In this document: positions 3,427 through 64,000 of the stretch, piece after piece
Layout of the letters: each line of letters opens with the position of its first letter
Position numbering within the stretch: the first letter of the stretch is position 1
Source: Flavobacteriales bacterium UBA958
GTDB lineage: Bacteria; Bacteroidota; Bacteroidia; Flavobacteriales_D; Crocinitomicaceae
Length of the DNA stretch: 64,000 nt
Direction of reading: 5' to 3'
Assembly: GCA_002293045.1 (NCBI GenBank)
Contig: DBCM01000070.1
Location: 14,139-78,138 of the forward strand
The notes under the pieces: model-generated
The model's database searches: none
Told to the model about the DNA's origin: nothing
What the model saw: only the letters and a program-made list of their open reading frames with translations
Translations under genes and position numbers: made by a program

Positions 3427-4992
3427 ATGAAAATTCTACCCGCTATTTTATCTGCCCTTCTTGCTTGCTCCGCATGGGCGCAACAAATTTCTTACCTGTC
3501 CTTAGATCACAACAATGTTTCGTGTTTGCTCGACGACGAGGGTGGATTTTTTAACAACTTGCCATCCGGGTTGGCGGGTTATGAAGTCCCTAAACAGAGT
3601 GGATTATCCACCATTTTTGCGGGGTCGTATTGGATGGGAGCGCAAGATGTGAATGGCGCCTTGTACATGTCTGCGGTGAAATACAGTGCGGGAGGCAGCT
3701 GGAGTGCGTTTCATGGTGGACCCATTTCTACTACCCAAGCATACAATACCTTAGCCTACAGCAACCAATACCAAGACGCCATCTGGAAGGTAAGCAAGGC
3801 CGAAATATTGGCCCACCAAGCCAATGTGCAAAACCCAGGGTATGTAGTGCCCCCTGCCATTGCCAATTGGCCAGGCAACGGGGATACCTCACTCGGAATC
3901 GCAGCACAACTTGCTCCCTTTATAGACCTCAACGGGAATGGTCTTTATGAACCATCCCAAGGAGATTATCCCGATATCCGCGGCGACGAGGCCGTTTATG
4001 TTATTACGAACGATGAATCGTATCTACCCGATGGTAACCAATTGGGTATTGAAGTACACGCCATGTTTTACCAATTCCAAACCGCAAACTACCTGAACAA
4101 TACGACCTTTTTGACCCTGCGGGTGTACAACCGAAGCAACCGCACATATTACAATTTTCATGAAGGCCTTTACCTCGACTTTGACTTAGGCAATTATTCC
4201 GATGACTACATCGGATGTGATCCCACCAACCGATTATTGTATGCGTACAACGGTGATGACCTTGACGAATCGGACGGAGGACAACTAGGATACGGTGCAA
4301 ACCCGCCCTGCCAAGGTGTATTGTGCCTTTCACATCCCTTAGAAAGCGCGGGAAGATTAACCGGTGCGATGGATGCAGGCATGAGCACCAGCTTTGATAC
4401 AACGGCATGGTTGCTCATGAACGGACAAAACAGCGATAGCACCAATTGGATGAATCCCTTAACGAATACCAGCACCCATTTTCTGTACGACGGTAATCCC
4501 AACGTACCCAATACATGGAATGAAGCGGCCAGTAATAACAACCCAAGTGACCGAAGGGGAATGTTAAGCATAAAAGAAGCGATCTTACCCCAAGGAGAAA
4601 GCTTTTGCGCTGATTTTGCCTTCATTTACAATCGTTCCGGAAACCGCCTACAGAATGTGCAACAGAACATCTACACGGCAGGGGCCTTACTGACGTGGTA
4701 TGCGCAAGATCAAGTTTTCCCCTGTCAATCGCAGGCGTTTAACAGCCTAACAGAATCAGATCAGGCACTCGAACCCTTACTCCTTTATCCCAACCCGACC
4801 AGTCAACAGCTCACCGTCGCATGGACATCCAAAGACGCTTCTTGCATTGAAATCTTTACCCTACACGGTAAGCTGGTAGAACGCATTCCCATACATGAAC
4901 CCAAGGCTCAAACCCTCGATGTTAGCGGCCTATCGCCGGGCATGTACCTAATCCGTGTTGAAGAACAAACGCAATGCTTACATAAAGAGTAA
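3427..4992 (+). CDS. T9SS-secreted protein (type A C-terminal sorting domain); short paralog of the giant proteins at 40262-44422 and 60507-64000
   Basis: Signal peptide MKILPAILSALLACSAWAQ. C-terminal LLLYPNPTSQQLTV...IEIFTLHGKLV...GMYLIRV is typical of T9SS CTDs. The N-terminal module (NNVSCLL..GYEVPKQSG..IFAGSYWMGAQDVNGALYMSAVKYS) and the central YLDFDLGNYSDDYIGCD...YNGDDLDESDGGQLGYGANPP motif are shared with the two giant paralogs. Confidence 0.8.
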   Translation: MKILPAILSALLACSAWAQQISYLSLDHNNVSCLLDDEGGFFNNLPSGLAGYEVPKQSGLSTIFAGSYWMGAQDVNGALYMSAVKYSAGGSWSAFHGGPISTTQAYNTLAYSNQYQDAIWKVSKAEILAHQANVQNPGYVVPPAIANWPGNGDTSLGIAAQLAPFIDLNGNGLYEPSQGDYPDIRGDEAVYVITNDESYLPDGNQLGIEVHAMFYQFQTANYLNNTTFLTLRVYNRSNRTYYNFHEGLYLDFDLGNYSDDYIGCDPTNRLLYAYNGDDLDESDGGQLGYGANPPCQGVLCLSHPLESAGRLTGAMDAGMSTSFDTTAWLLMNGQNSDSTNWMNPLTNTSTHFLYDGNPNVPNTWNEAASNNNPSDRRGMLSIKEAILPQGESFCADFAFIYNRSGNRLQNVQQNIYTAGALLTWYAQDQVFPCQSQAFNSLTESDQALEPLLLYPNPTSQQLTVAWTSKDASCIEIFTLHGKLVERIPIHEPKAQTLDVSGLSPGMYLIRVEEQTQCLHKE

Positions 4993-21652: not shown

Positions 21653-21768
21653 TTGAAAAATTTGAGGGTAAAAATACACTTTATACCCATTAAAAAAAAG
21701 CAATAAAGCAACCATAAAACAGCCTTTGCAGTATTATAAATTAACCGCGCTTGCGTAATTTAGCCACC

Positions 21769-28623: not shown

Positions 28624-28625
28624 AA

Positions 28626-28913
28626 TTACATGTGTTCAATGCCATCAGGCAGGTCATAAAACGTGGGATGCCGATACACTTTAGAATCTGCGGGCTCAAA
28701 ATACGCCTCAGAATCTGAAGGATCAGAAGCCGTAATCAGCGCCGATTGTACCACCCAAATGGAAATCCCTTCGGACCTTCTGGTGTACACATCACGGGCA
28801 TTTTGCAGAGCCATTGCGGAGTCTGGAGCTCTCAGGCTTCCAACATGTTTATGGTTAAGTCCTTGTTTGCTACGAATAAAAACTTCCCATAGCGGCCATT
28901 CGTTCGTTGACAT
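28626..28913 (-). CDS. paaB: 1,2-phenylacetyl-CoA epoxidase subunit PaaB
   Basis: 95 aa. WPLWEVFIRSK.GL.HKHVGSL.A is a typical PaaB N-terminus. Confidence 0.85.
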   Translation of the reverse strand: MSTNEWPLWEVFIRSKQGLNHKHVGSLRAPDSAMALQNARDVYTRRSEGISIWVVQSALITASDPSDSEAYFEPADSKVYRHPTFYDLPDGIEHM

Positions 28914-28933
28914 GGTATGAAATTTAGATTGTA

Positions 28934-29878: not shown

Positions 29879-30006
29879 TTATTACACAAATATACTCAAA
29901 TCAAATCCTAAAAAAATGGGTAAAATTCTAGTGCATCAGAATCTTATTTTTCATATGAACAAGAGTTCGAATTGATTTGTTTAATTTTGGCCACACAATA
30001 CGTGAT

Positions 30007-31074: not shown

Positions 31075-31075
31075 C

Positions 31076-32847: not shown

Positions 32848-33843
32848 GTGAAGCGAATTGTTATACTTAGTGCGTTAGTGGTAAATTTCATGGTTTATGG
32901 ACAAGACATCCATTGGTCACAATTCAACGACAATCCCATCTTTCAAAATCCAGCAAATACGGGAGAATTTAATGGGGATACACGATTCATAGGAAATTTC
33001 CGAGATCAGTGGCGCAGTGTTTCTGTTCCATTTCAAACATTCAATGTGTGTGTTGATCGAAAAGCAAAGCATTTCAATTACGGGCTATTCATGTTTCATG
33101 ATCAAGCGGGAGATGGCACGCTTAAAACCATTGAAGCGATGGTTACCTTGTCAAAAACATTTAAAATCACCCCAGACTCCCTTCATATTATCACAGGAGG
33201 CATCAACCTAGGCATCAATCACAGGCAAGTAAATACAGACGCGTTCTACTTTGACTCCCAATACAACGGGTACATCTTTAATCCCTTATTGCCCACCAAT
33301 GAAACGTTTCAAACAGATCGTAAAACCAATGCCAATCTTGGGGTAGGTGCACAATACGGACTGAATATCTCTTCTCGCCATTACCTAAAAGTAGGATTAA
33401 GCGCATTTAATTTAAATCAACCGAACCAAGGATTTTATCAGGATGTCATTAAGCGAGACCTACGATGGGTCTGGCAAGTTAAATATAGCCAGGCAATCAA
33501 TGCACGCTGGGATATCTTGCCTTCGTTACAATATTCCAAACAAGGAACATACGATGAATTAATGTTGGGCAGTTCTGTACGGTACTATTTACCAGGAAGC
33601 AATCGAAATTACATTCACAAGGCATTATTGGCGGGCGTTTGGTCGCGTGCTAGAGATGCACAGATTTTATCGGTTGGCTGTGAATACAAGGACTGGTTTG
33701 TTGGTTTAAGTTATGACATTAATACCTCAAAGTTAGTGCCCGCAAGCAAAGCACGTGGAGGCTTTGAAATTGCCGTTCGTTATATCATGTATCGTTTTAA
33801 ACCGAAGCGAATTGACCATCGCGTATGCCCAGACTTTATCTAA
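32848..33843 (+). CDS. PorP/SprF family type IX secretion system membrane protein
   Basis: GTG start. Signal peptide, then QDIHWSQFNDNPIFQNPANTGEF, the typical PorP/SprF N-terminal signature. About 330 aa beta-barrel size. Confidence 0.8.
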   Translation: MKRIVILSALVVNFMVYGQDIHWSQFNDNPIFQNPANTGEFNGDTRFIGNFRDQWRSVSVPFQTFNVCVDRKAKHFNYGLFMFHDQAGDGTLKTIEAMVTLSKTFKITPDSLHIITGGINLGINHRQVNTDAFYFDSQYNGYIFNPLLPTNETFQTDRKTNANLGVGAQYGLNISSRHYLKVGLSAFNLNQPNQGFYQDVIKRDLRWVWQVKYSQAINARWDILPSLQYSKQGTYDELMLGSSVRYYLPGSNRNYIHKALLAGVWSRARDAQILSVGCEYKDWFVGLSYDINTSKLVPASKARGGFEIAVRYIMYRFKPKRIDHRVCPDFI

Positions 33844-39123: not shown

Positions 39124-39144
39124 CTGTAAAGGGATTAAACGCAA

Positions 39145-39168
39145 ACAAGAGAGCCTAAGCCCTCTTGT
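39145..39168 (-). terminator. putative terminator ending the TBDR-giant-PorV-like operon
   Basis: ACAAGAG/CTCTTGT 7-bp stem 23 nt past the PorV-like stop. The minus-strand tail ttgcgttt is only moderately T-rich. Confidence 0.4.
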
Positions 39169-39190
39169 TCTACAAAAATACTATAATTTC

Positions 39191-40243
39191 TTATTTTAAA
39201 CTAATCGTAACGCCAAGGGTATGAATGATTCCAAATACACCCGCAAAACGCGAGCAATACTCAACGCCTAATGCACTTTTATTCTTACCAACAAGCGCAT
39301 CTACTGAGAAACCAGCTGTAGGGCCTGTAAGGGCATTCGAGCGATTCTCTGCATCGAAAATACCATTTTCATACACAAATCCTCCACGAACATTGAATGC
39401 AACTTTTTCCGTTGACATTCCATAGTCTAGGCCAATTCTATATTGATCTTTAGAAAATGAATTCGCTTGAAATGCAAGCGCTAGATTTAACTTACTCGCG
39501 TCGCTAAAAATAAAATCATAGGAGCCTCCGATTGACAATAAGGATGGCAATTCATACGTTGCAGAACGTTGCTCTAATGAAGCAATAAAACCACTAGATA
39601 CATACTCCACTTGATTCGCTAACCCATCGCCTTTAAATTTCATTACCGGACCTACATTCTTCAGTGCGATACCAAATTTAATCTGATTTTGCTCACCCGT
39701 AACGTAACGAATGCCTGCATCTACAGCGATTCCATTCGATTTTAAATTAAAAATGCTCTCAGTGACCACTTTAAAATTGATTCCACCGTATATCGAGGAA
39801 GAAAACTTTTTTGCAAATCCCACATTAAAGATGTTTGCACGAGGCGAAAAATAACCGATGTTACCTTCGGGATTCGCTACGGTAGTAATCGGAACATCAC
39901 CGTAATTCATAGATTGAATGCTCACCGCAATTACATTAGATTCACCAACGCGTTGGGCGAATCCAGCAGAATTCAAACTAATTCCTGCGTTACCCATCCA
40001 ATTTGAGTAGTTGAACTTGATTTGCGTTTTATCCAAAAAAGCCAACCCTGCTATGTTGTTGTACTGTGCTTCTAGGCCATTGATGTTAGCAACACCCGCA
40101 TCCCCGATCGCTGAACCCCGAGCCCATGGATTAACCAATAGATGGGAAGCCCCCGCAGATCCTACACGATCTTCATTGCCAGCAAAGGCAGACAACGAGC
40201 ATGCTGCGGCAAAAATTAAACTATACTTACTAATCGATTTCAT
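39191..40243 (-). CDS. PorV/PorQ family outer-membrane beta-barrel protein
   Basis: 350 aa with a signal peptide. GSAGASHLLVNPWARGSAIGDAGVANINGLEAQYNNIAGLAF resembles the conserved PorV/PorQ N-terminal block (..AR..a.GDAGVA...). Beta-strand-rich, and the terminal strand ends HTLGVTISLK. Confidence 0.6.
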   Translation of the reverse strand: MKSISKYSLIFAAACSLSAFAGNEDRVGSAGASHLLVNPWARGSAIGDAGVANINGLEAQYNNIAGLAFLDKTQIKFNYSNWMGNAGISLNSAGFAQRVGESNVIAVSIQSMNYGDVPITTVANPEGNIGYFSPRANIFNVGFAKKFSSSIYGGINFKVVTESIFNLKSNGIAVDAGIRYVTGEQNQIKFGIALKNVGPVMKFKGDGLANQVEYVSSGFIASLEQRSATYELPSLLSIGGSYDFIFSDASKLNLALAFQANSFSKDQYRIGLDYGMSTEKVAFNVRGGFVYENGIFDAENRSNALTGPTAGFSVDALVGKNKSALGVEYCSRFAGVFGIIHTLGVTISLK

Positions 40244-40261
40244 GCTATCTATAATTAATGA

Positions 40262-43200
40262 TTAGATTCCTTGATAATCCGGAGTTCTCATTCCTCCAAA
40301 GAACTTCAATACCACTTCTCCGATTTCCGGAACTTCCACGTGAATGAGATAAACCCCACCAGCCACTGGAATCGCTTTGTGATTTGTTAAATCCCAATCC
40401 AATGATGTTACCGGACTGTCCTTTTTGAAGGTTCGAATTAATTTACCATTTACTGAATAAATCTTAACCGTACATTTTTCAGGAAGGTTCGTAATTTTCA
40501 CCTTGGTCTCAATTCGCGTACGCTCATAATCCGAATATGCATAATATGGATTTGGAACCACATTAATCATTTTCAAGGCTTCTTCTAAGGCATCATGCGA
40601 TCCAACTTCTGTGGCTATTTCATCCATTGACCACCCGTACATTGGCTTACCACCGTTTGCACCCGTTGCTGTGAAATTCTTGTACTCTTTGTTAATGCGT
40701 AAACGGATGGTAACATCTGTAGCTAGTAAAGACTGACCCGGTGTTACAATCGGATACGAAATCCAAGTCAAACTTCCGTATAAATCGCGTTTTGATTGCG
40801 TATTGTTTGCTTCTACCTCAAGGTACTTTTGATACGCAACATTGTTTGCGTTTACGTCCGATACGCCTGGAGTATAGGCTGGGAAATCAAAACTTGAGTT
40901 GTATCCATTAATTGATTTTTGATTGTAACTAAATACATAGATTGGATGCATTCCACCCATCAATGGTGTACCTACGTTACTCACAAAATTTGACGTTGGA
41001 TTCCAAACCATGTCTGCGCCATTTTCACCGCCAAGGAACGAATTCTCACCAAATGCCATGTACAAGCGAGCACCAGATTCTAAGTCTACGGCATAGCCTG
41101 GGAACCAACCCATTCCAGTTCCTGTACCATCCGCATCCCCATTCTTATCTACACTTGGGCTTTTTCTTAAGGCCCCCGGTATTGCGCCACCCACATTCAA
41201 TCCAGCGGTGCGTCCAAGCTCAACCACCGGACAACGTGTCCAAAGGCTCTTGTCATTCGTAATCACAATGTTTACACTTGGTAAGAACGAAATCGATGCA
41301 TTTTGACGGGAAGAACCGTTAAACGTACCACAATAGGCCAATGGCATGTAATCCGCTTGATAACCTGTTAAACGGTGCGGTGCAATCGTACCTTCCAAAA
41401 TACCTTCATAGCTTTGGTCAGGATCAACACCCGCTTCGTCTGGATAATTGCACGGATTTAAATAGGTCGGACCATTAGGTAAGCCCTCGAAAGCAGGGTC
41501 GTTTTCGTCACATTCTGGCGCATAATCTCCCGAACGAATCCAATTGGTTGGGAAATATGCATCGTTGTCTGGAACTCCCATTAACCAACGCTTTGAGGAA
41601 TCTCCATACGTCATTGAAGACTCAATCATATCCGTTGTTCTCGCAGTAATGTTACCTGAACCTGAAGGGAAATAATAGTTTTCTTGGTGGATTTGCACCG
41701 AGATTCCCCATGCTGGTATAATTTGCTCATTATCCCCTGCAATCGTAACATCAGAACTTACAGAATCCTGAATGGTACCGCCCTTTGTATCGTAGCGATA
41801 AATCACCCAACTTGCGGTATCGGCTGCATTCCCGGGGGAAGTTGGCGTGTAGTTTCTGAAACGACACTCAAAATATCCGCCTTTCAAATTTAATGGGTCA
41901 ACTACTTTAATGTTCACTGGACCTCGGCCTGCCGCATATTCTGGATCTTCCATAAACCCAGTATTCAAAATGGTAGTTAAAGACTCATCTGTAAATTCTA
42001 AGGAACGGTTTCCATTTCCGTAGCCATCAAGGCGCGTAATTTTTGGTGTAGAACCGTAACTCACTAATTGATAGGTACCGTCTGCCTCTGGCATTGGGTT
42101 GTGCGGAACTGCAGGTGTGGAACTAATGGCAGTACCATCAAAATTCAAACGAGAAGAGATATACGGCATTTTTTGACCATCTAACAACAATGGATCATTT
42201 GGATCATACTTTTTGAACTCGTTGTGCGCATACGCAACCGCTACATAATAATATGTTTTGTGATTTACTAAACGTCGAGCCCCTTGAGCAAAGGCATCTT
42301 CAGTTACCTGGAATGAGTGACGGATTCCTTTGTTTTCACCATCCACTTTTTCTACAGGAACTGAGAATCCTAATGCTTCGTCAAATTCAAAATTGATGAG
42401 GCGAGAAATACTGTTTTTAATGTCACATTGTGCAACCAAACGAGCCTTTGTTGGATCAGCGATGTCTGAAATGGAAACATCTTGATTCTTTAATTGGAAG
42501 ATTTGATACCCTTCAAAACGGTATTTTCTATCTACGGTTGGATCGGGAATATTGATTTCATCTACCTCTTCATACCCTTCTTGATAGTTATTTGAAGAAA
42601 TAGGGTTCTCAATCATTAAGATTAATTCTTTATCTAGCTCCTGGATTGTTAATTTCGGTGCATCTGGCGGAGATAAGATTTTGAAACAAGCATCAAATAA
42701 AGCCTGTGCTTTAGTATCCGCACGTTTCATAGCGTCAACAGATGCCATTAAGGTACCTTCGGTACTACGTCCATAAACAATACCCACTGTAATGTTATTC
42801 ACAGCACCTGGTTTTAAGGTGAACGGACCAGCAGACTGTACAAAACGACGGTCACCCGCAGGGTTGTTGTTTGTTGACTCATCCCATCCATTTGGATATT
42901 GACCAGACATATCTGTACCAGCAGTAGACCAACTCAATGGATCTGAAGTTCCAGGGAACATGTAATCAGAAAGTACTCCTGGAGTACTGCCTAAGCCTCC
43001 GTAATACATCTCAGAACCATTAGCCCATTGGCCTTCCATGAAATTATAAAATTCTGCTGCAGGACCTGGATCATTGTACGGATATGCCGATGTTGAGGTA
43101 TAGTAGGTAAATCTTCGCATACCAAAACGCTCATTATCAATAATGCCATCGGAATAACCAATACCAATTCCTTTGTAAACGATCCCATTATTTGCTAAGG

Positions 43201-44422
43201 CATCAACTACGGTAGGAACTACTAAGGATTGCGTTGCATTATCAAAATATGGCCCTGGGTTATCGATCCCATCTGCATCTTGATACGGTCCTTCGAAGAA
43301 ATCACATCCGATTGCTGGAGGATTGTCCCCATACCCTAATTTACCACCGTCGTTTTCATCATTCAGATCGCCATTATACATGTACCCTAATCCGCGAGAA
43401 ACATCACACCCTGCGTAGTCATCCGCATAATTTCCAACATCCGCATCCAAGTATTGGGCAAAATATGTATCGTAAAGGGTTTGCGTACCGCGGTTTATTA
43501 ACTCATAGTTGTAGAAGGTCATTTTATTCACCTCATCGTTTGTAGCGAAAGAGAACGCTTGCGCACGAATTTCCATTCCAATTGGATCGCCATTCGTCTC
43601 GGTGTGAATGTTCCCTTTATCATTAAATACCCACCAATGGGTTTCATCACCAAACAAAGAAATTCGTCGGTCAAACCCACACTGAATGTCATCACGCCCT
43701 AAAATATCATCGTACCAAGGGTGGTCACCGTTGTCAGGATTATAATTTCCATCTTGATCTCTATCGTAATAAGGCGCCAAGAAATAATCTTGTCCTTTAG
43801 AAACATCCCCATGCGCTGGCCAGTTGTAGATTCTGTTTAACTCTTCATTCGAAGGCGATTGTACATCATCACATTCTGTAGTAATTCCCGCTTGGCATTC
43901 CCACCAAATATTAAAACGAATTACTTCTGCTTTACGGATCGTGTAGAATTGGTCATATGCAATACACTGATCTGGATCGATGTTCGCCTCGCCAAAATCA
44001 CGAATTGCTCCGTCCCCAACTGGGAATAAGGGATTATAATTTCCGGTACCTGGAGTTACTGATAACGGGCCAGGCCAAAAGTCGTTCCCTTGACGGTAGC
44101 GCAACGCGGCAAGTTTAAGCTGACCGTTAACGTCTGTTCCGCCCATCCAGAGTGCACCGGCAAAAATCGCAAAGCGATTACTTCCCTTTGGTACCTCGTA
44201 GGCTGCGACACCGTTTTGACGGTTTTGAAACATGGACCCTCCTTGCTCGATTAGGGCGCGTACATCATTAAATTCCATGATGTATTTTGCCGTAGCCGGA
44301 CTACAGTTTGCTTTTGGTTTTCCAGTTGGCTTTTTACTTTTATCGTTTGGTCCGTAATATGCCAAGGCATTTGAACCAATGAAGACAATTGCGATAAATG
44401 TGGCAAATAATTGCTTTTTCAT
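40262..44422 (-). CDS. giant secreted protein with T9SS-type C-terminal domain (unnamed paralog family)
   Basis: ATG giving MKKQLFATFIAIVFIGSNALA (the track starts 10 codons earlier at 44452). Shares the N-terminal module FNDVRALIE..YEVPKGS..IFAGALWMGGTDVNGQLKLAALRYRQGNDFWPGP and central YLDADVGNYADDYAGCD..YNGDLNDENDGGKLGYGDNPP with 3427-4992 and 60507-64000. The C-terminal VVPNPYYAYSDYE...VKIYSVNGKLI...GGVYLIHV is CTD-like. Confidence 0.8.
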   Translation of the reverse strand: MKKQLFATFIAIVFIGSNALAYYGPNDKSKKPTGKPKANCSPATAKYIMEFNDVRALIEQGGSMFQNRQNGVAAYEVPKGSNRFAIFAGALWMGGTDVNGQLKLAALRYRQGNDFWPGPLSVTPGTGNYNPLFPVGDGAIRDFGEANIDPDQCIAYDQFYTIRKAEVIRFNIWWECQAGITTECDDVQSPSNEELNRIYNWPAHGDVSKGQDYFLAPYYDRDQDGNYNPDNGDHPWYDDILGRDDIQCGFDRRISLFGDETHWWVFNDKGNIHTETNGDPIGMEIRAQAFSFATNDEVNKMTFYNYELINRGTQTLYDTYFAQYLDADVGNYADDYAGCDVSRGLGYMYNGDLNDENDGGKLGYGDNPPAIGCDFFEGPYQDADGIDNPGPYFDNATQSLVVPTVVDALANNGIVYKGIGIGYSDGIIDNERFGMRRFTYYTSTSAYPYNDPGPAAEFYNFMEGQWANGSEMYYGGLGSTPGVLSDYMFPGTSDPLSWSTAGTDMSGQYPNGWDESTNNNPAGDRRFVQSAGPFTLKPGAVNNITVGIVYGRSTEGTLMASVDAMKRADTKAQALFDACFKILSPPDAPKLTIQELDKELILMIENPISSNNYQEGYEEVDEINIPDPTVDRKYRFEGYQIFQLKNQDVSISDIADPTKARLVAQCDIKNSISRLINFEFDEALGFSVPVEKVDGENKGIRHSFQVTEDAFAQGARRLVNHKTYYYVAVAYAHNEFKKYDPNDPLLLDGQKMPYISSRLNFDGTAISSTPAVPHNPMPEADGTYQLVSYGSTPKITRLDGYGNGNRSLEFTDESLTTILNTGFMEDPEYAAGRGPVNIKVVDPLNLKGGYFECRFRNYTPTSPGNAADTASWVIYRYDTKGGTIQDSVSSDVTIAGDNEQIIPAWGISVQIHQENYYFPSGSGNITARTTDMIESSMTYGDSSKRWLMGVPDNDAYFPTNWIRSGDYAPECDENDPAFEGLPNGPTYLNPCNYPDEAGVDPDQSYEGILEGTIAPHRLTGYQADYMPLAYCGTFNGSSRQNASISFLPSVNIVITNDKSLWTRCPVVELGRTAGLNVGGAIPGALRKSPSVDKNGDADGTGTGMGWFPGYAVDLESGARLYMAFGENSFLGGENGADMVWNPTSNFVSNVGTPLMGGMHPIYVFSYNQKSINGYNSSFDFPAYTPGVSDVNANNVAYQKYLEVEANNTQSKRDLYGSLTWISYPIVTPGQSLLATDVTIRLRINKEYKNFTATGANGGKPMYGWSMDEIATEVGSHDALEEALKMINVVPNPYYAYSDYERTRIETKVKITNLPEKCTVKIYSVNGKLIRTFKKDSPVTSLDWDLTNHKAIPVAGGVYLIHVEVPEIGEVVLKFFGGMRTPDYQGI

Positions 44423-44441
44423 AACCTTTATGCTATTTATT

Positions 44442-47400
44442 TTAGAAATCATATTTTACTCCAAGACGAATGGTACGAGGTACACTAATGTTAAACGGAT
44501 TATTCACCTTCATGGAGTAGTAATCGCGGAACGCTTGCTCATCCGTTTGATTTTGAATGGACGTTTGACTCGCTGCTGCTGCTAAATACCCATCGTCATC
44601 GGCATTACCGGTAGCGCGGTAAATGGATAATATATTGAATTGGTTAAACAAGTTCGTTGCACGGATATAGATGTTCAAATTGGAAACTTTTTCTTTGTCC
44701 TTGCTTTTCGCATCTTTTGACTTGTGCGTAATGGTTATGTTTCGATCCAACTGCATGTCTAATCGATACGTCCAAGGCATACGAGAGCCGTTCACTGTAC
44801 CGCTGATCCCCGCATTCAAGTTGCCAATTCCTTCATCTGTGATGAACGTTTGCGCTGAATATGGATACCCTGAATTGATGTTTGTAAAGATGTTTAATCC
44901 CGTATTCTCTAAGACATTAAATCCACCAATTTTTGGTCCGTTGTAATCCTTCCCTTCACCGTAACGATAGTCGAACGTAATGGCGAACGCATGACGTTGG
45001 TCGAAGCTATATGGGAAGATATTTCTTAGGTTAGGAATCCCTGCATTGATGAACGCCGCCATAGAAGTTGCATCAGACCCTGTACCATCAGCGAACTGTA
45101 AGGTATAGTTTGCAGTCATCCGAATGTTCCCTGTTTGACGTAAGTCGTATGCAATGGTCATCCCCTTAACGGTACCAAAGTCGCGATTACCGAATGTTTT
45201 GTAGGAAGCAGGGTAAGCCATGAACACGTTAATTAACTGTACATTATTTCGCTGTTCACGATAGAAGGCGGAGATTTTCAAGGAGGAGGTTGCAGACAAT
45301 ACTTGTTGGAATCCTAATTCGTAATCTACCGTAGTTTCTGGTTTGAGGTTTGCATTGTTAATTACGGCGCTTCGTGTTTGGATGAACTGATATTCGTATG
45401 GATCAAAACGGAAACCTGAGGTCGGTCGTTTTGTTAAGATGTCATAATGCGCAAAAAACGAAGCTTTCTCAGAAATCGGAAACGAGAAGGCGATTCGAGG
45501 CATCACGTTAATTTGAGCTTTATAATCTTCAAATGCAGAGGCATCTGGTGCGGTTTGCCCTGGATTCAATACCCAAGGAGCAATACCACCGGCACCTTGA
45601 ATGGTTTTCGGATCTTCTACGGTAGTCCCTACTGCATTGTACCACTGATCACCTGTTCTAAATCCGTTAATGCCTGTTGGGTTAGAAATGTCGTTCACAT
45701 AAACAATATAATCGTCGCCCATACTTTCAGGGATATCTACCCAGTTGTATTGACCTGGGTCATTTGCCTTTAGTTCTTTCGCTTCCTTCACAGTTCGCGC
45801 GTTAAAGAACAAATATTGATCTTTCAACACAGGTTGATTCGCATCAAATACATCAACACGTACACCCACGTTAAACACGATGTCTTTGAATGCAAATTTA
45901 TCCATTACATAACCAGCCATGTAAGTAGGTTGGAATGCGCCAATAAATCGCTTGTAATTGCCGTTTTCATCGAACTCGTTAAAATACTTGTTAATATCTG
46001 TAGTTCCTTTTACTTTCTTTCCAGTATGATCAAATCCGTAATATGAAACGAATGAGTTTCCACCATTCATTAACTCATCGGGTGAGAACATATCAAACTG
46101 AAACATCCCCGGATCGTACATGTCAATGTCAACATAATCATCTCCTGCAATATTCAACCCAAGTGCTTTTCTTACGCTGTAATCAAAGAAAGACTGATTA
46201 TCGTTGTTTAATTGGCCCCCATAAACCCCTGTTCCGGATTGGCTGGCATATCCCGCATTTAAACGGTCATAGGTAATGGCCTTAAACGAACCAGAGTCAG
46301 TAATTACTCCCGAAGCGTAATCAAGCTCTTCAATGTGGAAGTTCATCAACTGACGAGCGATGGACCAAATTGCCACCGGGCCTTGGTCACCATTAGACCA
46401 TCCGCGGTCGATGCGTTGTTCATATTCGAACCCTAGTGATACACTGTGGTTACCGATCACTAAGGATCCCGCTCCCGTTACTCGAAACTGGTCGTTTTCA
46501 AACTTACCAAACCCGTTTGAAGGAGAACCGATGTTGGACCAAATGCCGTAAACGCTTTGAGGTGCATCTCCATTTCTCAAGGCATTTCCTTGCTGGATTT
46601 GGAATAAGTTTTCATAATGACCAAGAGGCTCTCCTTGGTAAATGTTATAGTATTGAGTTGTGATCGCAGCCAATGCAGCATTGGTTTCCGAAGGAGAAAA
46701 TGCAACCTCTAAATCCTTGAATCCGTTGTGTTCCCAACGTTGTAAGTTATCATTAAACTGATAGGATGGTGTACGTCGGGTAGTAAATTTCCCCACGTGA
46801 CCATAATTAAAGATATTGTATTGATGCCTTGGGTCATAAGAATCCCGTAGCGTTTTGCTGTAATCAACCATTAAGGTGTAGTTCGCAGACTTAATTTTGC
46901 TGTTTTTGTTATCACTCGTGAAACGTTGTGAAATTTTTCCGTACACACGGTAATCCAAGCCTTTAGATTCTCCGAAATTGGTGAAATTCAGAAGGGATGC
47001 TGCGTAGGAGTAATTAGACGCTCTAAAGTAATTTAAGGATCCTCCGAACTGTACGTTTACTGAAGGACCTGTATTTACGTCAATTTTACCTTGACCGGAA
47101 ATCGTTGTATTTCTGGCGTTCATTCTCCAAGGAACTTTCTCGAAATCCGATTCTTTGGTTGGGTTACCATCAGCGTCTAAGGGGTTTTGTAAAAACAAGG
47201 CATTATGGAAGGTTCCGAATCCCGTAGAAGTTGGGCGCAAAGGATTTGCAAGAAGCTCATCCCTGGTTTCTTGCTTTACACGCCATCCACCGCCAGCTAG
47301 AGGTCGATTGTCTAGCTCATCCGTTAAATTACCAGAAACAAGGAATCCTAAAAGGGGACGAGTTTTATTGCCTGCAGAATCTTTTTGCATCCAAAGTGGT

Positions 47401-48239
47401 CCGGATAACATTCCCTCGACAAGGTTGTATCCAAATTTATCCAATCCAATCACTTTTCCGTCGTACCCGTTTGGATCTGCTCCTTTAAAGTATGCCCCAG
47501 AAGTTACTGCTTCAATGCTACCAAAGTAAATGGCTGAAGGGCCTCTGGTGGTTACGGAAATGATTCCTCCAGTAACATCCCCATAATTCGCAGGAACCCC
47601 ACCCGTTATAACCGATACTTCTTCGAGTGCGGCTTTCGGTAGGTTAGCAGAACCACGGACCTTAATTCCATCAATAAAGAAATAGGTGGCGTCTGAACGT
47701 GAACCTCTCACCGAAATCGCACCGCTTCCTTCGTTTGTATTTACCCCTCCAACAGATTGGGCCACACCTGCTGCAGAACGCACGGGCATTCTGGCAATGT
47801 CTTCCCTCCCGAGCACGGCACCTGATGCCCCACCGTCTTTATCAATAAGGGGAACTTTGTATCGAGTTACCTTCACCTCATCTTTTTGTAGCTCATTTTC
47901 GGGCTTACCTAAGGTTATTTTTTCCAAAAAGGTAATCTTGTCTGAAGAGATAACCACGCCTTGTTCGAGGGCGTCTTGATAGCCTTCGATCTTGTTGGTT
48001 ACCTTCACATCGTAGGATCCCGGAAGAATGGCATTAATTTGAAATTCTCCTTTTTCATCCGTAATGGCATTCCCCTTCATCGAAGTTCCTGACATTAAAT
48101 AAACCTTGGCACTGGGTATAACTTCCCCAGATTTTTGGTCTTTAACTATCCCCTTTAGGGTTCCCAATCCAGACTGAGCAAACATGTAAGCGCTTGAAAA
48201 CAAAACGCTTAACACTAATAACTGTAATTTTTTCAGCAT
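44442..48239 (-). CDS. TonB-dependent-receptor-like outer-membrane protein with N-terminal carboxypeptidase-regulatory-like domain
   Basis: 1265 aa with a signal peptide. GTLKGIVKDQKSGEVIPSAKVYL...GEFQINAILPGSYDVKV (CarboxypepD_reg-like). Plug-like ISVRGSRSDATYFFIDGIKVRG. Terminal ...RTIRLGVKYDF with a C-terminal Phe. No SusD-like gene follows. Confidence 0.75.
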   Translation of the reverse strand: MLKKLQLLVLSVLFSSAYMFAQSGLGTLKGIVKDQKSGEVIPSAKVYLMSGTSMKGNAITDEKGEFQINAILPGSYDVKVTNKIEGYQDALEQGVVISSDKITFLEKITLGKPENELQKDEVKVTRYKVPLIDKDGGASGAVLGREDIARMPVRSAAGVAQSVGGVNTNEGSGAISVRGSRSDATYFFIDGIKVRGSANLPKAALEEVSVITGGVPANYGDVTGGIISVTTRGPSAIYFGSIEAVTSGAYFKGADPNGYDGKVIGLDKFGYNLVEGMLSGPLWMQKDSAGNKTRPLLGFLVSGNLTDELDNRPLAGGGWRVKQETRDELLANPLRPTSTGFGTFHNALFLQNPLDADGNPTKESDFEKVPWRMNARNTTISGQGKIDVNTGPSVNVQFGGSLNYFRASNYSYAASLLNFTNFGESKGLDYRVYGKISQRFTSDNKNSKIKSANYTLMVDYSKTLRDSYDPRHQYNIFNYGHVGKFTTRRTPSYQFNDNLQRWEHNGFKDLEVAFSPSETNAALAAITTQYYNIYQGEPLGHYENLFQIQQGNALRNGDAPQSVYGIWSNIGSPSNGFGKFENDQFRVTGAGSLVIGNHSVSLGFEYEQRIDRGWSNGDQGPVAIWSIARQLMNFHIEELDYASGVITDSGSFKAITYDRLNAGYASQSGTGVYGGQLNNDNQSFFDYSVRKALGLNIAGDDYVDIDMYDPGMFQFDMFSPDELMNGGNSFVSYYGFDHTGKKVKGTTDINKYFNEFDENGNYKRFIGAFQPTYMAGYVMDKFAFKDIVFNVGVRVDVFDANQPVLKDQYLFFNARTVKEAKELKANDPGQYNWVDIPESMGDDYIVYVNDISNPTGINGFRTGDQWYNAVGTTVEDPKTIQGAGGIAPWVLNPGQTAPDASAFEDYKAQINVMPRIAFSFPISEKASFFAHYDILTKRPTSGFRFDPYEYQFIQTRSAVINNANLKPETTVDYELGFQQVLSATSSLKISAFYREQRNNVQLINVFMAYPASYKTFGNRDFGTVKGMTIAYDLRQTGNIRMTANYTLQFADGTGSDATSMAAFINAGIPNLRNIFPYSFDQRHAFAITFDYRYGEGKDYNGPKIGGFNVLENTGLNIFTNINSGYPYSAQTFITDEGIGNLNAGISGTVNGSRMPWTYRLDMQLDRNITITHKSKDAKSKDKEKVSNLNIYIRATNLFNQFNILSIYRATGNADDDGYLAAAASQTSIQNQTDEQAFRDYYSMKVNNPFNISVPRTIRLGVKYDF

Positions 48240-48393
48240 ATTCTTTCGTAAATTGTTGCTAAGAACACATTAAATTTAAGTTGCTAAATATAGAAATATA
48301 AACTTGTATAGCCAAAATGTTAAAAAAATAAAAAGAAAAAAATGCCGAATTTTACAATCGAAGTACCGATAAGCGTTAACGAATAACAGATGT

Positions 48394-60477: not shown

Positions 60478-60506
60478 AAATCCATATTTTTTGGTAATTT
60501 CAGCGA

Positions 60507-63500
60507 GTGAAACGGTATACAACCCTTGCCTTTATTTATCTCATTTCAGCGTTTGCTGTATTTGGTCAATCCTATCAAGGAAATCATACCCAGCAGATCA
60601 AACCTGCAAAAGCTGCGGGCTGCGCCCCACCAACCACAACTTCTTTCCTTGAATTAAACAACGTACGCGCGATGGTGCACACCGCCGGGAATTTATGGCA
60701 AATTCCAGGTCAAAACTTTGCGCAATATGAAGTACCTAAGAATTCAGGAATCATGGCCTTGTTTACTGCCGCCTTGTGGCTTGGTGGAACCGATGTAAAT
60801 AATCAACTTAAACTCGCGGCCCTACGTTATCGGAATGGGCAAGATTATTGGACAGGACCTTTGTCTCAAGTCTTCGCGGAAACCAGTTATGAGGAATGTG
60901 ATAAATACGACCGACACTTCATTAGCTCAAAAGATGAAATACGAGAATTTAATGCCTGGTTTGAGGCGGGACTCGCTGATCAGCAGAACGGTACAAACAC
61001 GCAAGCTGCCCTCTTTCCAAATTATCAAGTACCGGAAATTATTAAAACATGGCCGGCCCATGGGAATGTATCGCTAGGCCAAGACTATTACCTGGCGCCC
61101 TTTTATGACTTTAACGACGACGGCCATTACGACTGGCGTGATGGAGATTATCCCTGGTACGACATAAAGCAAGACAAGCAATGTAACGTCGATCGGGATG
61201 TATCGCTGTATGGGGATAAGAACTTTTGGTGGGTTATGAACGACAAGGGGAATATCCATACTGAAACGGGTGCAGATCCCATTGGAATGGAAATCAGGGC
61301 CCAAGCCTTTGCCTTTGCTTCCAACGATGAAGTAAATAACATGACCTTTTACAACTACGTGCTCATTAACCGAGGCACACAAACCTTATACAACACCTAT
61401 TTTGGGTTTTTTACGGACGGCGCCTTGGGAGATCCATACGATGACTATGTGGGTTGTGATGTCATGCGTGGCTTGGGATACTATTACAATGGGGATAATT
61501 TTGATGGGGACAACTCGGGGTATAAAGGCTATGGCTATTCTCCACCCGCGGTGGGGGTAGACTTCTTTGAAGGACCCTATCAAGACGATGACGGAATCGA
61601 TAATGCCTATGGCATTGGATTGAACGAGGCGTTGAATGGGATTGGTTATGGAGATGGAATCATAGACAACGAACGCTTCGGAATGCGCAGGTTCTTGTAT
61701 TATTCAAATACAACGAACGGGGCAAACATCAATCAAACTGACCCCATTGCCTCCTCGGATTACTACAACTATTTGAGGGGCTATTGGAAAGATGGAACCA
61801 AGTTCGTGTATGGTGGAAGTGGTCATATCTCTGACCCTGAAGCCGATCCAAATACCCCCTGTGATTTTATGTTCCCTGGAACCTCTGATTTTATGGGCTG
61901 GGGAACGGGAGGTATTGTTAAACCAAATTGGACGGAACAAACGGCCAATAACACACCGAATGATCGTAGATTTGTAGAGAGCGCGGGACCCTTCTTGCTT
62001 AAACCCGGAGCAGTTAACAACATTACGGTGGGGGTTGTTTGGGCTCGTTCCAACGGTGGAGACCCCTTTACCTCGGTGGAATCTTTGCGTCGTGCAGACG
62101 ATAAAGCTCAGGCCTTATTCGAAAATTGTTTTAAAGTGATGGATGCCCCGCATGCACCCAACTTAGAAATTCAAGAATTGAATAATGAACTCATTCTTTA
62201 CTTGTCAAACCCGATTAACTCGAACAACTATCAAGAAAAATATCAGGAAAACGACCCCTTCATTGTCTCATCAAATCCCAACGCCGATAAAACGTTTCGG
62301 TTCCAAGGGTATCAAATTTTCCAATTAGCGAGTAATCAAGTAGCGCTTTCTGATTTGAGTAATCCCTTAAAATCAAGGTTGGTTGCTCAATGTGACATCA
62401 AGGACAATGTTTCTCGGATTATCAATTTTGAGTTTGATGAAGAACTAGGGTTTAGTGTTCCTAAAGAGCGGGTTAATGGTGAAAACAAGGGAATTCGGCA
62501 CAGCTTCCGGGTAACGAACGATTTATTCGCGCAAGGGCAATCGAAGTTGGTGAATTTCAAGAAATATTACTACATGGCGGTTTCTTATGCCTACAACAAC
62601 TACGAAACCTACAATCCGAATGATCCCTTGAGTCTGAACGGACAAAAAATGCCCTACATCGCCAGTAGAAAAAGTGCCATGGGTGAAGTGAAGGTTATGG
62701 AAGGGGTACCGCATAATCCAATGCCTGAAGCCGATGGTACCTATCAACAAATAAGCTATGGGTCTACGCCCAGAATTACACGCCTCGATGGGTACGGTAA
62801 CGGGAATCGATCCTTGGAATTTACAGAGGCTACCTTGAATACTATTTTGAATACTGGGTTTATGGAGGATCCCGAGTATGATTATGGACAAGGTCCGGTG
62901 AACATCAAAGTAGTGGACCCCTTAAACCTAAAAAGTGGATATTTTGAGTGTCGTTTTAGAAATTATACCCCTACCTCACCGGGTAATGCGGCCGATACCG
63001 CCCGTTGGGTGATTTATCGCTACGATAGCAAAGGTGGGACGATACAAGATTCTGTAAGTTCAGAGCTTACCATTGCCGGCGACAACGAGCAAATCATACC
63101 GGCATGGGGTATATCGGTTCAAATCCACCAAGAAACCTATTATTTCCCTTCAGGATCTGGCAACATTACAGCGAAAAGCACCAACATGATTGAGTCTTCA
63201 ATGACTTTTGCGGACTCGTCTAAACGCTGGCTTACCGGAATCAAAGACAACGATGCATTTTTTCCCACCAACTGGATCCGCTCGGGAGAATATATTCCGG
63301 TGACCGATATAAACAATGCCGCTTACGATTGTAATCCCAATGTCCCTCCCTATTTGAATCCATGTAATTACCCAGATGAAAGCGGAGTCGATCCTAATCA
63401 AAATTACGAAGGTGTCTTGGAAGGAATTATTGCTCCGCACCGATTAACCGGATATGAAGCCGATTATATGCCCTTGGCGTATTGTGGAACCTTCAGTGGG

Positions 63501-64000
63501 TCATCCCGTCAAAATGCATCGATTTCATTCTTACCGAGTGTGAACATTGTAATCACCAGCGATAAGAGCAAGTGGACACGTTGTCCGGTAGTTGAATTGG
63601 GCCGTACCGCTGGGTTAAATGTGGGTGCGGCTGTTCCTGGGGGGTTGAGAAAAAGCCCAAGTGTAGATAAGAATGGAAATGCCGATGGTACAGGTACTGG
63701 AATGGGATGGTTCCCAGGCTATGCGGTAGATTTGGAATCAGGTGCGCGTTTGTACATGGCCTTTGGAGAGAATTCGTTCCTTGGCGGTGAAAACGGTGCG
63801 GATATGGTTTGGAATCCGACTTCAAGCTTTGTGAGTAGCGTTGGAATCCCATTGATGGGAGGCATGCATCCAATCTATGTATTTAGTTACCACCAAAAGT
63901 CAATTAACGCATTCAACTCAAGTTTTGATTTTCCCGCCTACACTCCGGGATTTTCTGAAGATAACGCAAACAATATCGCCTATCAAAAGTATTTAGAAGT
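60507..64000 (+). CDS. second giant paralog of the 40262-44422 protein (5-prime complete, 3-prime truncated by the window edge); absent from the ORF track
   Basis: Hand translation from GTG 60507 gives signal peptide (M)KRYTTLAFIYLISAFAVFGQ. It continues KPAKAAGCAPPTTTSFLELNNVRAMVHTAGNLWQ..YEVPKNSGIMALFTAALWLGGTDVNNQLKLAALRYRNGQDYWTGP..., and the frame is still open at 64000 (...DNANNIAYQKYLEV). It is collinear with the 1396-aa protein. Only short antisense ORFs are listed here in the track. Confidence 0.85.
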   Translation, partial: MKRYTTLAFIYLISAFAVFGQSYQGNHTQQIKPAKAAGCAPPTTTSFLELNNVRAMVHTAGNLWQIPGQNFAQYEVPKNSGIMALFTAALWLGGTDVNNQLKLAALRYRNGQDYWTGPLSQVFAETSYEECDKYDRHFISSKDEIREFNAWFEAGLADQQNGTNTQAALFPNYQVPEIIKTWPAHGNVSLGQDYYLAPFYDFNDDGHYDWRDGDYPWYDIKQDKQCNVDRDVSLYGDKNFWWVMNDKGNIHTETGADPIGMEIRAQAFAFASNDEVNNMTFYNYVLINRGTQTLYNTYFGFFTDGALGDPYDDYVGCDVMRGLGYYYNGDNFDGDNSGYKGYGYSPPAVGVDFFEGPYQDDDGIDNAYGIGLNEALNGIGYGDGIIDNERFGMRRFLYYSNTTNGANINQTDPIASSDYYNYLRGYWKDGTKFVYGGSGHISDPEADPNTPCDFMFPGTSDFMGWGTGGIVKPNWTEQTANNTPNDRRFVESAGPFLLKPGAVNNITVGVVWARSNGGDPFTSVESLRRADDKAQALFENCFKVMDAPHAPNLEIQELNNELILYLSNPINSNNYQEKYQENDPFIVSSNPNADKTFRFQGYQIFQLASNQVALSDLSNPLKSRLVAQCDIKDNVSRIINFEFDEELGFSVPKERVNGENKGIRHSFRVTNDLFAQGQSKLVNFKKYYYMAVSYAYNNYETYNPNDPLSLNGQKMPYIASRKSAMGEVKVMEGVPHNPMPEADGTYQQISYGSTPRITRLDGYGNGNRSLEFTEATLNTILNTGFMEDPEYDYGQGPVNIKVVDPLNLKSGYFECRFRNYTPTSPGNAADTARWVIYRYDSKGGTIQDSVSSELTIAGDNEQIIPAWGISVQIHQETYYFPSGSGNITAKSTNMIESSMTFADSSKRWLTGIKDNDAFFPTNWIRSGEYIPVTDINNAAYDCNPNVPPYLNPCNYPDESGVDPNQNYEGVLEGIIAPHRLTGYEADYMPLAYCGTFSGSSRQNASISFLPSVNIVITSDKSKWTRCPVVELGRTAGLNVGAAVPGGLRKSPSVDKNGNADGTGTGMGWFPGYAVDLESGARLYMAFGENSFLGGENGADMVWNPTSSFVSSVGIPLMGGMHPIYVFSYHQKSINAFNSSFDFPAYTPGFSEDNANNIAYQKYLE

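Follow-up and report, generated by a model that had tools for sequence, protein, structure and literature searches.

A conserved gene triad of freshwater Crocinitomicaceae that may encode an outer-membrane uptake complex with a giant type IX-secreted partner

Three neighbouring genes of a freshwater member of the Crocinitomicaceae, referred to here as g1, g2 and g3, form a deeply co-conserved unit that encodes a TonB-dependent-transporter-like protein, a giant secreted protein with a variant, PorZ/PorU-like C-terminal sorting domain (CTD), and an outer-membrane barrel of the PorV/PorQ family. We propose, with a probability of roughly 45%, that the T9SS (type IX secretion system) delivers g2 to the surface, that its uncleaved CTD would hold it on g3, and that it would partner the g1 transporter in a SusCD-like manner. 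The genes were analysed within a stretch of 64,000 nucleotides (the window), to which all coordinates refer, and they and all of their features described below lie on the minus strand.

The layout of the trio is operon-like, since only 19 nt separate the stop codon of g1 from the ATG of g2 at 44422, another 18 nt separate g2 from g3, and a single terminator-like hairpin (39141-39173, minus strand) stands 3' of g3. Folding of the 61-nt stretch that holds this hairpin gave -19.3 kcal/mol (z = -4.13), which none of 200 shuffles matched. These open reading frames and the folding bear out the original prediction, which had described a co-directional trio with gaps of about 19 and 18 nt and a hairpin at its end. 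The AT-rich intergenic region upstream of g1 (48240..48393, minus strand), which is common to g1 and a divergently transcribed ACPS gene, presumably serves as the promoter, judging from its sequence; two weak sigma-70-type matches lie upstream of g1 (48323-48295 and 48315-48287), found by a scan that excludes Bacteroidota promoters. The neighbours of the trio are housekeeping genes, and the neighbourhoods examined showed no linkage of the triad to genes for CAZymes, peptidases, sensors or ECF-sigma factors. The window also holds a separate PorP/SprF gene (32848-33843) and genes for T9SS cargo of types A and B.

Most of the 80 species-level Crocinitomicaceae loci that we sampled have a complete triad; in all, some 60 species-level genomes of the family keep it whole, at 65-97% amino-acid identity. 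It is also present in loci L084, L088 and L090, as well as in Salinivirgaceae (Bacteroidales), where all three proteins are about 38-41% identical over their full length and the greA-HIT neighbours are kept. One Crocinitomicaceae clade keeps g1 and g2 and has SOD and mgtE in the place of g3. The original prediction was to be abandoned if the triad proved not to be conserved as a unit, and the roughly 60 Crocinitomicaceae genomes, together with Salinivirgaceae, show that this is not the case. As far as sequence comparison goes, all three proteins are under strong constraint.

The first gene, g1 (44442..48239), was delimited by its open reading frame and domain models and encodes 1265 aa; its orthologues are 64-98% identical within Crocinitomicaceae and 38% identical, at full length, in Salinivirgaceae. 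The protein consists of a signal peptide, an N-terminal extension, a TonB-box-like motif, a plug and a long C-terminal region that ends in Phe (...LGVKYDF, with a ..YDF beta-signal). The extension (residues 27-103; 47931..48161) matches CarboxypepD_reg (PF13620, 43.9 bits against a cut-off of 32.3), a domain found in 27 of 28 orthologues, and the plug (residues 138-225; 47565..47828) matches PF07715 (38.3 bits, gathering cut-off 23.9) in all 28, while a PDB search with the family profile finds the PqqU and YncD plugs (E ~5e-5). The CarboxypepD_reg-like domain, the plug and the C-terminal Phe had all been read from the sequence beforehand. Between extension and plug lies the motif DEVKVTRYKVPLI (residues 120-132; 47844..47882), which the Salinivirgaceae orthologue, at 38% identity, keeps as DEVIVVDYKVPLI and in which E, P, L and I do not vary across the 28 orthologues; its position suggests the role of a TonB box. 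Together, the conserved motif and plug suggest that g1 is an energised transporter. The remaining ~1000 aa have no Pfam barrel match in any of the 28 orthologues, and matches to NCBIfam TBDR-barrel models are weak (E 1.5e-3 for g1; 1.5e-5 and 2e-5 for the orthologue in L082). An AlphaFold model of residues 105-1265 was unusable (pLDDT 28, from a 17-sequence alignment at 79-98% identity), and hhalign of the g1 profile with one Pfam-positive TBDR of locus L087 aligned the plug alone, at a probability of 0.2. The barrel of g1 is therefore a putative one, as Pfam is silent, the NCBIfam matches are weak and no usable model was obtained. We found no match of g1 to TIGR04056 (SusC/RagA) or to SusD models, and the next gene is g2, which itself has no SusD-like match, in agreement with the original view that the locus is not a polysaccharide utilization locus (PUL).

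The open reading frame of g2 (40262..44452) encodes 1396 aa from its first ATG. Its orthologues align only from residue 10-11, so the start is likely the ATG at 44422 (MKKQLF..., 1386 aa). A signal peptide ending in ..SNALA before YYG is followed by an all-beta multi-domain body and then by the variant CTD. Cys50 is invariant, and outside the CTD the protein has no Pfam, NCBIfam or PDB match in sequence and profile searches, much as expected for the giant secreted protein with a conserved Cys and an unrecognisable body that had been described. The AlphaFold model of residues 30-1197 is confident, all-beta and multi-domain (mean pLDDT 87.2, pTM 0.72); for it, Foldseek searches of the PDB and BFVD returned only weak sandwich and FN3 matches (TM <=0.26). 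Among these the best, at E 4e-4, were beta-supersandwich domains from carbohydrate-active enzymes, and the FN3-like and sandwich modules of the model resemble FN3 proteins of phage tails and fibres. The same searches gave no enzyme or lectin assignment and no ligand site, and no peptidase, gingipain or C25-like fold was among the matches.

The g2 family is very large and unnamed, with 7,089 clusters at 50% identity. That it is a multi-copy family had been anticipated, and two further copies lie within the window. One of them (60504..63998, plus strand) is 63% identical to g2 by sequence comparison and is cut off by the end of the window; genes for an NMN transporter, AAA_28 and SCO1 precede it, with no g1 or g3 nearby. 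L080 has the complete copy, of 1348 aa, and the paralog is sister to g2 in a neighbour-joining (NJ) tree. The other (3427..4992, plus strand; 521 aa) joins the N-terminal module of g2 alone, at 35% identity to residues 59-393, to a CTD of the canonical type A (TIGR04183, 38.3 bits). A large neighbour at 21751-25629 was also considered as a paralog and proved to be unrelated, being a DUF7948-PKD-CHU_C type B cargo protein. More widely, there are paralogs of g2 that share its CTD type but have neither g1 nor g3 beside them, and the family includes tandem pairs. The free paralogs indicate that g2 can work, or at least undergo secretion, when no partner is linked to it.

In its general features g2 qualifies as T9SS cargo, with a Sec signal peptide, a CTD-related C-terminal beta-sandwich and T9SS genes in the same window. 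Its CTD (residues ~1290-1396; 40265..40585) was recognised through matches to the CTDs of PorZ and PorU, which are retained. The score against the PorZ model NF052228 is 30.7 bits (E 1.1e-7), far from the cut-off of 260 and restricted to residues 1290-1372, for which reason we rejected g2 as PorZ proper. The match to PorU (NF033707) is likewise confined to the CTD (16.7 bits, E 1.1e-3, cut-off 420), in line with the original judgement that g2 is not PorU. Against TIGR04183 the domain reaches 18.6 bits where 23 are required, and PF18962 gives no match. The best PDB matches of the g2 family profile are again PorZ (5m11, E 0.027) and PorU (6za2, E 0.73). In contrast, control cargo proteins of the window score 38-46 bits, and two with ordinary CTDs, at 38-42 bits against TIGR04183, match neither the PorZ nor the PorU model; the g2 CTD is closer to the CTDs that PorZ and PorU retain than to those of cargo. 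Aligned with canonical CTDs, it has family-specific insertions and, past their end, the tail KFFGGMRTPDYQGI (residues 1383-1396; 40265..40306). This tail of 13-14 residues, ..FFGGMRTPDYQGI, is conserved across the family with the consensus KWFGxxRPxDLxxF, so the extra tail that had been described for g2 is a family-wide trait. Within Crocinitomicaceae the tail reads KFFGGMR..QGI with an adjacent g3 and K[AS]F[IV]AMR where g3 is absent, a co-variation that may stem from no more than one or two events in evolution. At 0.73-0.77 identity, conservation of the CTD equals that of the body.

The third gene, g3 (39191..40243), encodes a FadL-like outer-membrane barrel of 350 aa. With 140.1 bits against NF033709 and 39.4 bits against PF19572 it exceeds the cut-offs of both models (90 and 27 bits, respectively), as its predicted likeness to PorV and PorQ implied. 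It stays below every equivalog cut-off, with PorQ the best (82.8/220 bits), then PorV (70.1/250) and PorV2 (43/325), and the Salinivirgaceae orthologue shows the same pattern. Its sole PDB relative is PorV of F. johnsoniae (6h3i_F, E 9.5e-10). By these scores, g3 belongs to the PorV/PorQ family but is not PorV, PorQ or PorV2. A g3 HMM run over 1.6 Mb of loci found the triad orthologues only and no further PorV-like genes, and a literature search on PorV2 found no relevant paper. We also considered FadL-like BamG and the other subunits described in two 2025 papers on the Bacteroidota BAM, which are unrelated to the triad.

We infer from these features that the three proteins would associate physically as one outer-membrane complex that captures and imports a candidate, probably polymeric, substrate. 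Here g2 would pass the inner membrane through Sec and the outer membrane through the T9SS, and its CTD would stay uncleaved and bound to the dedicated barrel g3, as that of PorZ is on PorQ and that of PorU on PorV. A private PorV-like partner for this CTD is plausible because it matches the CTDs of PorZ and PorU and those of the ordinary cargo in the window do not. The adjacency of g2 and g3, the type of the CTD and the co-variation of its tail with g3 speak indirectly for such docking. Held by g3 at the surface beside g1, g2 may bind substrate or present it to g1, the putative TonB-energised transporter, as the SusD lipoprotein and surface glycan-binding proteins do for SusC.

Several known systems share parts of this composition. 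As in SusCD and RagAB, g1 is of the large TonB-dependent type with a CarboxypepD_reg-type extension, a TonB-box-like motif and a plug, and the next gene of the operon is predicted to encode a large surface-exposed partner. However, this partner is an apparently Sec/T9SS-exported all-beta CTD protein of 1,386 aa rather than a SusD-fold lipoprotein, a PorV/PorQ-like barrel is added, g1 misses the SusC/RagA model, and no glycan-degrading enzymes or regulators are linked. PorQ holds PorZ through its retained CTD (PMC10202324), and the predicted docking of the g2 CTD on a 14-strand PorV-family barrel would parallel both this pair and PorU-PorV. The body of g2 is unrelated to the propellers of PorZ and the C25-like sortase of PorU, though, and further differences are the sub-threshold scores of g3 for PorQ, PorV and PorV2, the TonB-type barrel in the unit, and the insertions and tail of the g2 CTD. 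In SprB-SprF, which pairs type B CTD cargo with PorP/SprF-like barrels, a FadL-like barrel also adjoins its T9SS cargo, and one report describes a private FadL-like barrel beside type B cargo as needed for surface anchorage (PMC9143113); in our case the CTD derives from type A, not type B (CHU_C/TIGR04131), and the barrel is of the PorV/PorQ and not the PorP/SprF family. Two TonB-receptor-like barrels, PG0534 (PorF) in P. gingivalis and Oar in Myxococcus xanthus, are implicated in protein secretion and not in nutrient import; their kinship with g1 is hypothetical. Oar also has a CarboxypepD_reg N-terminal domain. As g2 has its own T9SS signal, no TBDT-mediated export would be needed.

A parallel in gene types comes from Rhodothermus marinus, in which an alginate locus contains a TonB receptor, a T9SS type A protein and a PorV/PorQ family protein (PMC9530828), and a xylan locus contains a TBDR followed by a Por-CTD protein (PMC6987092). 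Within one locus, the three gene types and their order match those of the triad, a likeness at the level of gene types with homology to g2 and g3 hypothetical. The Rhodothermus genes are smaller (a 935-aa receptor and a 727-aa CTD protein), stand among lyases and glycosidases, and are known from annotation only. The claim of the original prediction that no characterised system has this composition should therefore be qualified by this annotated precedent (PMC9530828). Its suggestion of a dedicated export and anchoring device held up in part: the triad is a conserved unit and a private PorV-like partner is plausible, but nothing points to g1 as exporting or tethering g2.

The proposed complex draws support from the operon-like layout, the conservation of the triad, the SusC-type domain order of g1, the PorZ/PorU-like CTD of g2 and the position of g3 nearest to PorQ, and also from the co-variation of tail and g3, the Rhodothermus gene order and the beta-supersandwich matches. 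It is weakened by the lack of any linked CAZyme, peptidase, sensor or ECF-sigma gene, by the unrecognised barrel of g1 and the weakness of the Foldseek matches in its favour (TM below 0.21), as well as by the g2 paralogs free of g1 and g3, the clade without g3 at the locus, the one or two events that may underlie the co-variation of tail and g3, and the hypothetical homology of the Rhodothermus proteins to g2 and g3.

An unlikely alternative is that the triad is an accessory or sorting module of the T9SS that would process, sort or anchor a subset of cargo, such as the g2 paralog family, with g3 as a PorQ-like dock, g2 as a PorZ-like factor at the surface and g1 as a barrel of the TonB-receptor type like PorF (PG0534), and with no part in nutrient import. 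The best matches of the g2 CTD (PorZ and PorU) and of g3 at the equivalog level (PorQ) would fit such a module, as would the very strong conservation of the three proteins among housekeeping neighbours; paralogs with the same CTD could share one dock, and the TonB-receptor-like barrel PG0534 is needed for the T9SS of P. gingivalis (PMC5445135). Nevertheless, no signal of a beta-propeller, of PorZ or of a peptidase comes from the body of g2, whose PorZ score stems from the CTD only, the relation of g1 to PG0534 is hypothetical, and Fluviicola taffensis, of the same family, has homologues in all 19 T9SS component trees, PorU included (PMC7323717). The module also appears to be absent from the model organisms studied, since NCBIfam and Pfam are without any g2 model.

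We consider it quite improbable that g2 and its paralogs are instead abundant structural, S-layer-like or adhesive proteins of a surface coat, with g3 as a non-covalent anchor and g1 as a scaffold. The all-beta g2 model with its modules like those of phage tail and fibre proteins would suit a coat, as would the missing enzyme signature and the multi-copy family with tandem pairs, which recalls TfsA/TfsB of Tannerella, a T9SS-secreted S-layer pair. Identities of 65-97% within the family and ~40% across orders are, however, more than is usual for coat or adhesin proteins that are exposed, and a scaffold would need neither the TonB-box-like motif nor the plug, both of which are conserved in g1. 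A chance adjacency of three outer-membrane genes with no common function is very unlikely: one clade has no g3 at this site and g2 has paralogs that stand alone, but order, short gaps and flanks are kept between Flavobacteriales and Bacteroidales at ~40% protein identity. Hardly credible is a misread core T9SS, with g2 as the lineage's PorU sortase and g3 as its only PorV, for although the succession of a large CTD protein and a barrel of the PorV family recalls porU-porV and g3 matches Pfam PorV, we rejected both identities on the PorU and PorV model scores, and g2 belongs to a multi-copy family and has no gingipain or C25-like fold.

The uptake complex that we favour would have a central protein, g2, from a family of more than 7,000 clusters with no name, domain model or structure. 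To our knowledge, no role has been assigned to barrels of the PorV family besides PorV and PorQ, and there is only a partial understanding of how T9SS cargo stays on the surface when it is not linked to A-LPS; the triad offers a genetically compact system for the retention of CTDs on private barrels and the T9SS-dependent assembly of an uptake complex. TonB-dependent transporters of Bacteroidota are thought to pair with lipoproteins. It is possible, if doubtful, that the triad represents an unrecognised, phylum-level class of uptake machine, in which the partner of the TonB transporter would be a giant T9SS-delivered non-lipoprotein, docked non-covalently on its own PorQ-like barrel by a third, tail-bearing class of CTD. 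If true, one complex would link the two outer-membrane systems that are the signature of Bacteroidota, import of the SusC type and export of type IX. In fresh water, Crocinitomicaceae are abundant and degrade organic matter of high molecular weight, and the putative substrate of the triad could therefore matter ecologically.

The triad lies on the minus strand between 39191 and 48239 and comprises the TonB-dependent-transporter-like gene g1 (44442-48239, 1265 aa), the giant g2 (40262-44452, 1396 aa counted from the first ATG), which carries a C-terminal domain (CTD) related to those of type IX secretion system (T9SS) proteins, and g3 (39191-40243, 350 aa), a PorV/PorQ-like barrel. The first ATG of g2 falls within the last codons of g1, and because alignments to g2 orthologues begin at residue 10-11, translation most likely starts at the ATG at 44422 (MKKQLF..., 1386 aa); this start reproduces the 19-nt gap between g1 and g2 of the original prediction. 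Only 18 nt separate g2 from g3, and 3' of g3 there is a hairpin (39141-39173) within a 61-nt stretch of -19.3 kcal/mol (z = -4.1; none of 200 shuffles folded as well). The surrounding genes are housekeeping ones, with greA and a HIT-family gene downstream and the divergently transcribed ACPS and PcrB genes upstream.

The closest genomes are MAGs of freshwater Crocinitomicaceae (Flavobacteriales), in which identities to the window reach 64-98% for g1, 65-97% for g2, and 70-99% for g3. Across 80 species-level loci, the order g1-g2-g3 is intact wherever the contig permits, except in one clade (loci L019, L022-24, L036, and probably L018 and L029) that has kept g1 and g2 without an adjacent g3; in L022, SOD and mgtE follow g2 instead. 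Digester contigs of Salinivirgaceae (Bacteroidales) carry, in that order, a g1-like gene (1237-1239 aa), a g2-like gene (1413-1422 aa), a PorV-like gene (347-350 aa), greA, and HIT, and their full-length identities to the window are 38% for g1, about 41% for g2 (cluster of P0189), and 39% for g3. As the same arrangement recurs both there and in three further divergent representatives (P0123, P0138, and P0137), the triad is an old unit that has been vertically kept, and its conservation as a unit in other genomes, one of the points on which the original prediction could have failed, is borne out.

The N-terminus of g1 contains a CarboxypepD_reg domain (43.9 bits, cut-off 32.3) and a Plug domain (38.3 bits, cut-off 23.9), and between them, at the position of a TonB box, lies the conserved motif DEVKVTRYKVPLI; the C-terminus is ..LGVKYDF. 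No Pfam barrel model matched the roughly 1000 residues past the plug in any of 28 orthologues, NCBIfam matches to TBDR barrels were weak, matches of the family profile to the PDB were confined to the plugs of PqqU and YncD, and an AlphaFold model from a shallow alignment reached a pLDDT of only 28. Because the N-terminal domains are recognized while the remainder has only weak matches and is poorly modeled, g1 is best termed TonB-dependent-transporter-like on solid N-terminal evidence, with a putative oversized barrel.

The body of g2 had no sequence matches in Pfam, NCBIfam, or the PDB. Its last ~100 residues match the PorZ model in its CTD part (30.7 bits, E 1.1e-7), likewise the PorU model, and on TIGR04183, the generic model for type A domains, they score 18.6 against a cut-off of 23. 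In the PDB, the family profile matched PorZ (5m11) and PorU (6za2) and nothing else. Two ordinary cargo proteins of the window, an M14 carboxypeptidase and a 521-aa g2 paralog, were used as controls; in contrast to g2, their CTDs scored 38-42 bits on TIGR04183 and matched neither PorZ nor PorU. Alignment with these canonical domains shows two insertions in the CTD of the g2 family, together with a tail of 13-14 residues (consensus KWFGxxRPxDLxxF; KFFGGMRTPDYQGI in the window). Modeled with AlphaFold2 from a 67-sequence alignment, residues 30-1197 form a nearly all-beta, multi-domain structure (mean pLDDT 87.2, pTM 0.72). The predicted combination of folds is new to the PDB, where everything that Foldseek matched was weak and partial (best E 4e-4, TM <=0.21), namely beta-supersandwich regions of galactose mutarotase and carbohydrate-active enzymes (GH15-like dextran dextrinase, GH94, GH116, and GH63). 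This link to carbohydrates is only a hint, and a viral library returned FN3-rich phage proteins. Conservation among orthologues is highest at residues 251-400, 551-600, and 1101-1150, and identity in the CTD (0.73-0.77) is about equal to that of the body.

Membership of g3 in the PorV/PorQ family is supported by NF033709 (140 bits, cut-off 90) and PF19572 (39 bits), and its sole PDB relative is PorV of F. johnsoniae (E 9.5e-10); scores fall below the equivalog cut-offs for PorQ (83/220 bits), PorV (70/250), and PorV2 (43/325). Every Crocinitomicaceae locus with an adjacent g3 (>57 loci) has the g2 tail KFFGGMR..QGI. In the Crocinitomicaceae loci lacking an adjacent g3, five that keep g1 and two that are free paralogs, the tail is K[AS]F[IV]AMR..[QE]N[ILM], and the version of the exceptional clade (KAFIAMR..QNI) resembles that of the free paralog (KSFVAMR..ENL). 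This variation fits a contact between tail and g3, and the co-variation may reflect just one or two events.

An exhaustive search placed 7,089 clusters at 50% identity in the g2 family (E <=1e-3; 1,792 at E <=1e-30), most of them 1,300-1,500 aa long. Copies without g1 and g3 occur as single genes, as tandem pairs, and in the window itself, where a free paralog (60504-63998, plus strand, 63% identical) lies behind NMN-transporter, AAA_28, and SCO1 genes; a full copy is present in locus L080 (9989-14035). The position of the window's free copy as sister of g2 in an NJ tree indicates a recent duplication. The 521-aa paralog (3427-4992, plus strand) joins only the N-terminal module of g2 to a canonical type A CTD. 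Distant tandem pairs of 1380-1415-aa genes (~40-43% identity) in L081 (8001-16403) and L086 (2168-10637) had no TonB-type or PorV-like neighbor.

Other genes of the window were also annotated. A PorP/SprF-family barrel (32848-33843, plus strand; TIGR03519, 144 bits) is followed by a 732-aa TPR protein (33825-36023, plus strand) with sub-threshold scores for the CHU_0125 OmpA-like family (138 bits, cut-off 620) and PorE (94, cut-off 600), and the two could form a pair of PorP and a PorE-like protein. Two divergently oriented genes for T9SS cargo (18812-21715, minus, and 21751-25629, plus), which supplied controls for the CTD comparison, encode the M14 carboxypeptidase, whose MAM and PKD domains accompany a canonical type A CTD, and a protein that combines DUF7948 and PKD with a CTD of type B (CHU_C). 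Given this barrel, its neighbor with sub-threshold PorE and CHU_0125 matches, and cargo of both types, the host clearly has a T9SS. Elsewhere, phenylacetate-CoA oxygenase genes (two PaaA/C-like, one PaaD-like) adjoin two tandem FAD/NAD/2Fe-2S reductase genes (27395-32119), and a WYL-domain putative regulator (9689-10699, minus) lies amid fatty-acid-oxidation and SAM-synthetase genes. The low-GC (0.34) first 2 kb encode a ThsB-like TIR-domain protein (682-1251, plus; PF08937, 83 bits) that may be part of a fragmentary Thoeris-like defence islet; the adjoining ORFs (135-680, 1683-2411, and 2451-3137) had no Pfam match.

PorZ and PorU both retain the CTD, PorZ being held on PorQ and PorU on PorV, and protection of CTDs from cleavage has been proposed for cognate PorV-like barrels (PMC10202324). 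As the CTD of g2 is PorZ/PorU-like and the gene for a PorQ-like barrel lies just downstream, g2 would be exported by the T9SS and remain docked on g3 at the surface with its CTD retained. The conserved TonB-box-like motif and plug suggest that g1 would be an energized gate rather than a passive anchor, and as g2 carries its own export signal, import would be the simpler role. Our preferred explanation, at a probability of roughly 45%, is a complex that captures and imports substrate by analogy to SusCD, with a surface partner that the T9SS would deliver and a private PorQ-like barrel would hold; we infer its function, its assembly, the retention of the CTD, and the substrate. Two nutrient-utilization loci for polysaccharides in Rhodothermus marinus, compared with the triad by gene type and order, add support: the alginate locus runs TonB receptor, T9SS type A protein, PorV/PorQ family protein (PMC9530828), and in the xylan locus a TBDR precedes hypothetical proteins with Por CTDs (PMC6987092). 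Against this explanation, no enzymes or regulators are linked to the triad, g2 has free paralogs and one clade lacks an adjacent g3, the g1 barrel is only predicted, and the fold matches of g2 are weak.

By analogy to PorF, PorZ, and PorQ, the triad could instead be an accessory or sorting module of the T9SS, and PG0534 is indeed a TBDR-like T9SS component (PMC5445135), though we consider such a module unlikely. That the triad builds a coat or adhesin, with g1 as a scaffold, seems quite improbable, and chance adjacency is very hard to credit. The least probable reading, g2-g3 as the core porU-porV, was rejected because of the model scores and because Fluviicola taffensis, of the same family, is already represented by homologues in each of the 19 T9SS component trees, its PorU falling in the expected clade (PMC7323717).

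Each component of the proposed import complex is of a known type: g1 is a TBDT-like barrel, g2 is T9SS cargo, and g3 belongs to the PorV-family barrels. There are also precedents for a TBDT that works with a surface partner and for cargo served by its own FadL-like barrel. What is new is that the three are combined and conserved so deeply, that the CTD represents a subclass with a tail, and that the g2 family is large and lacks a domain model or structure. More tentatively, and with some doubt on our part, such triads might represent a class of TonB-dependent uptake machines that is assembled by the T9SS and exists at the level of the phylum.
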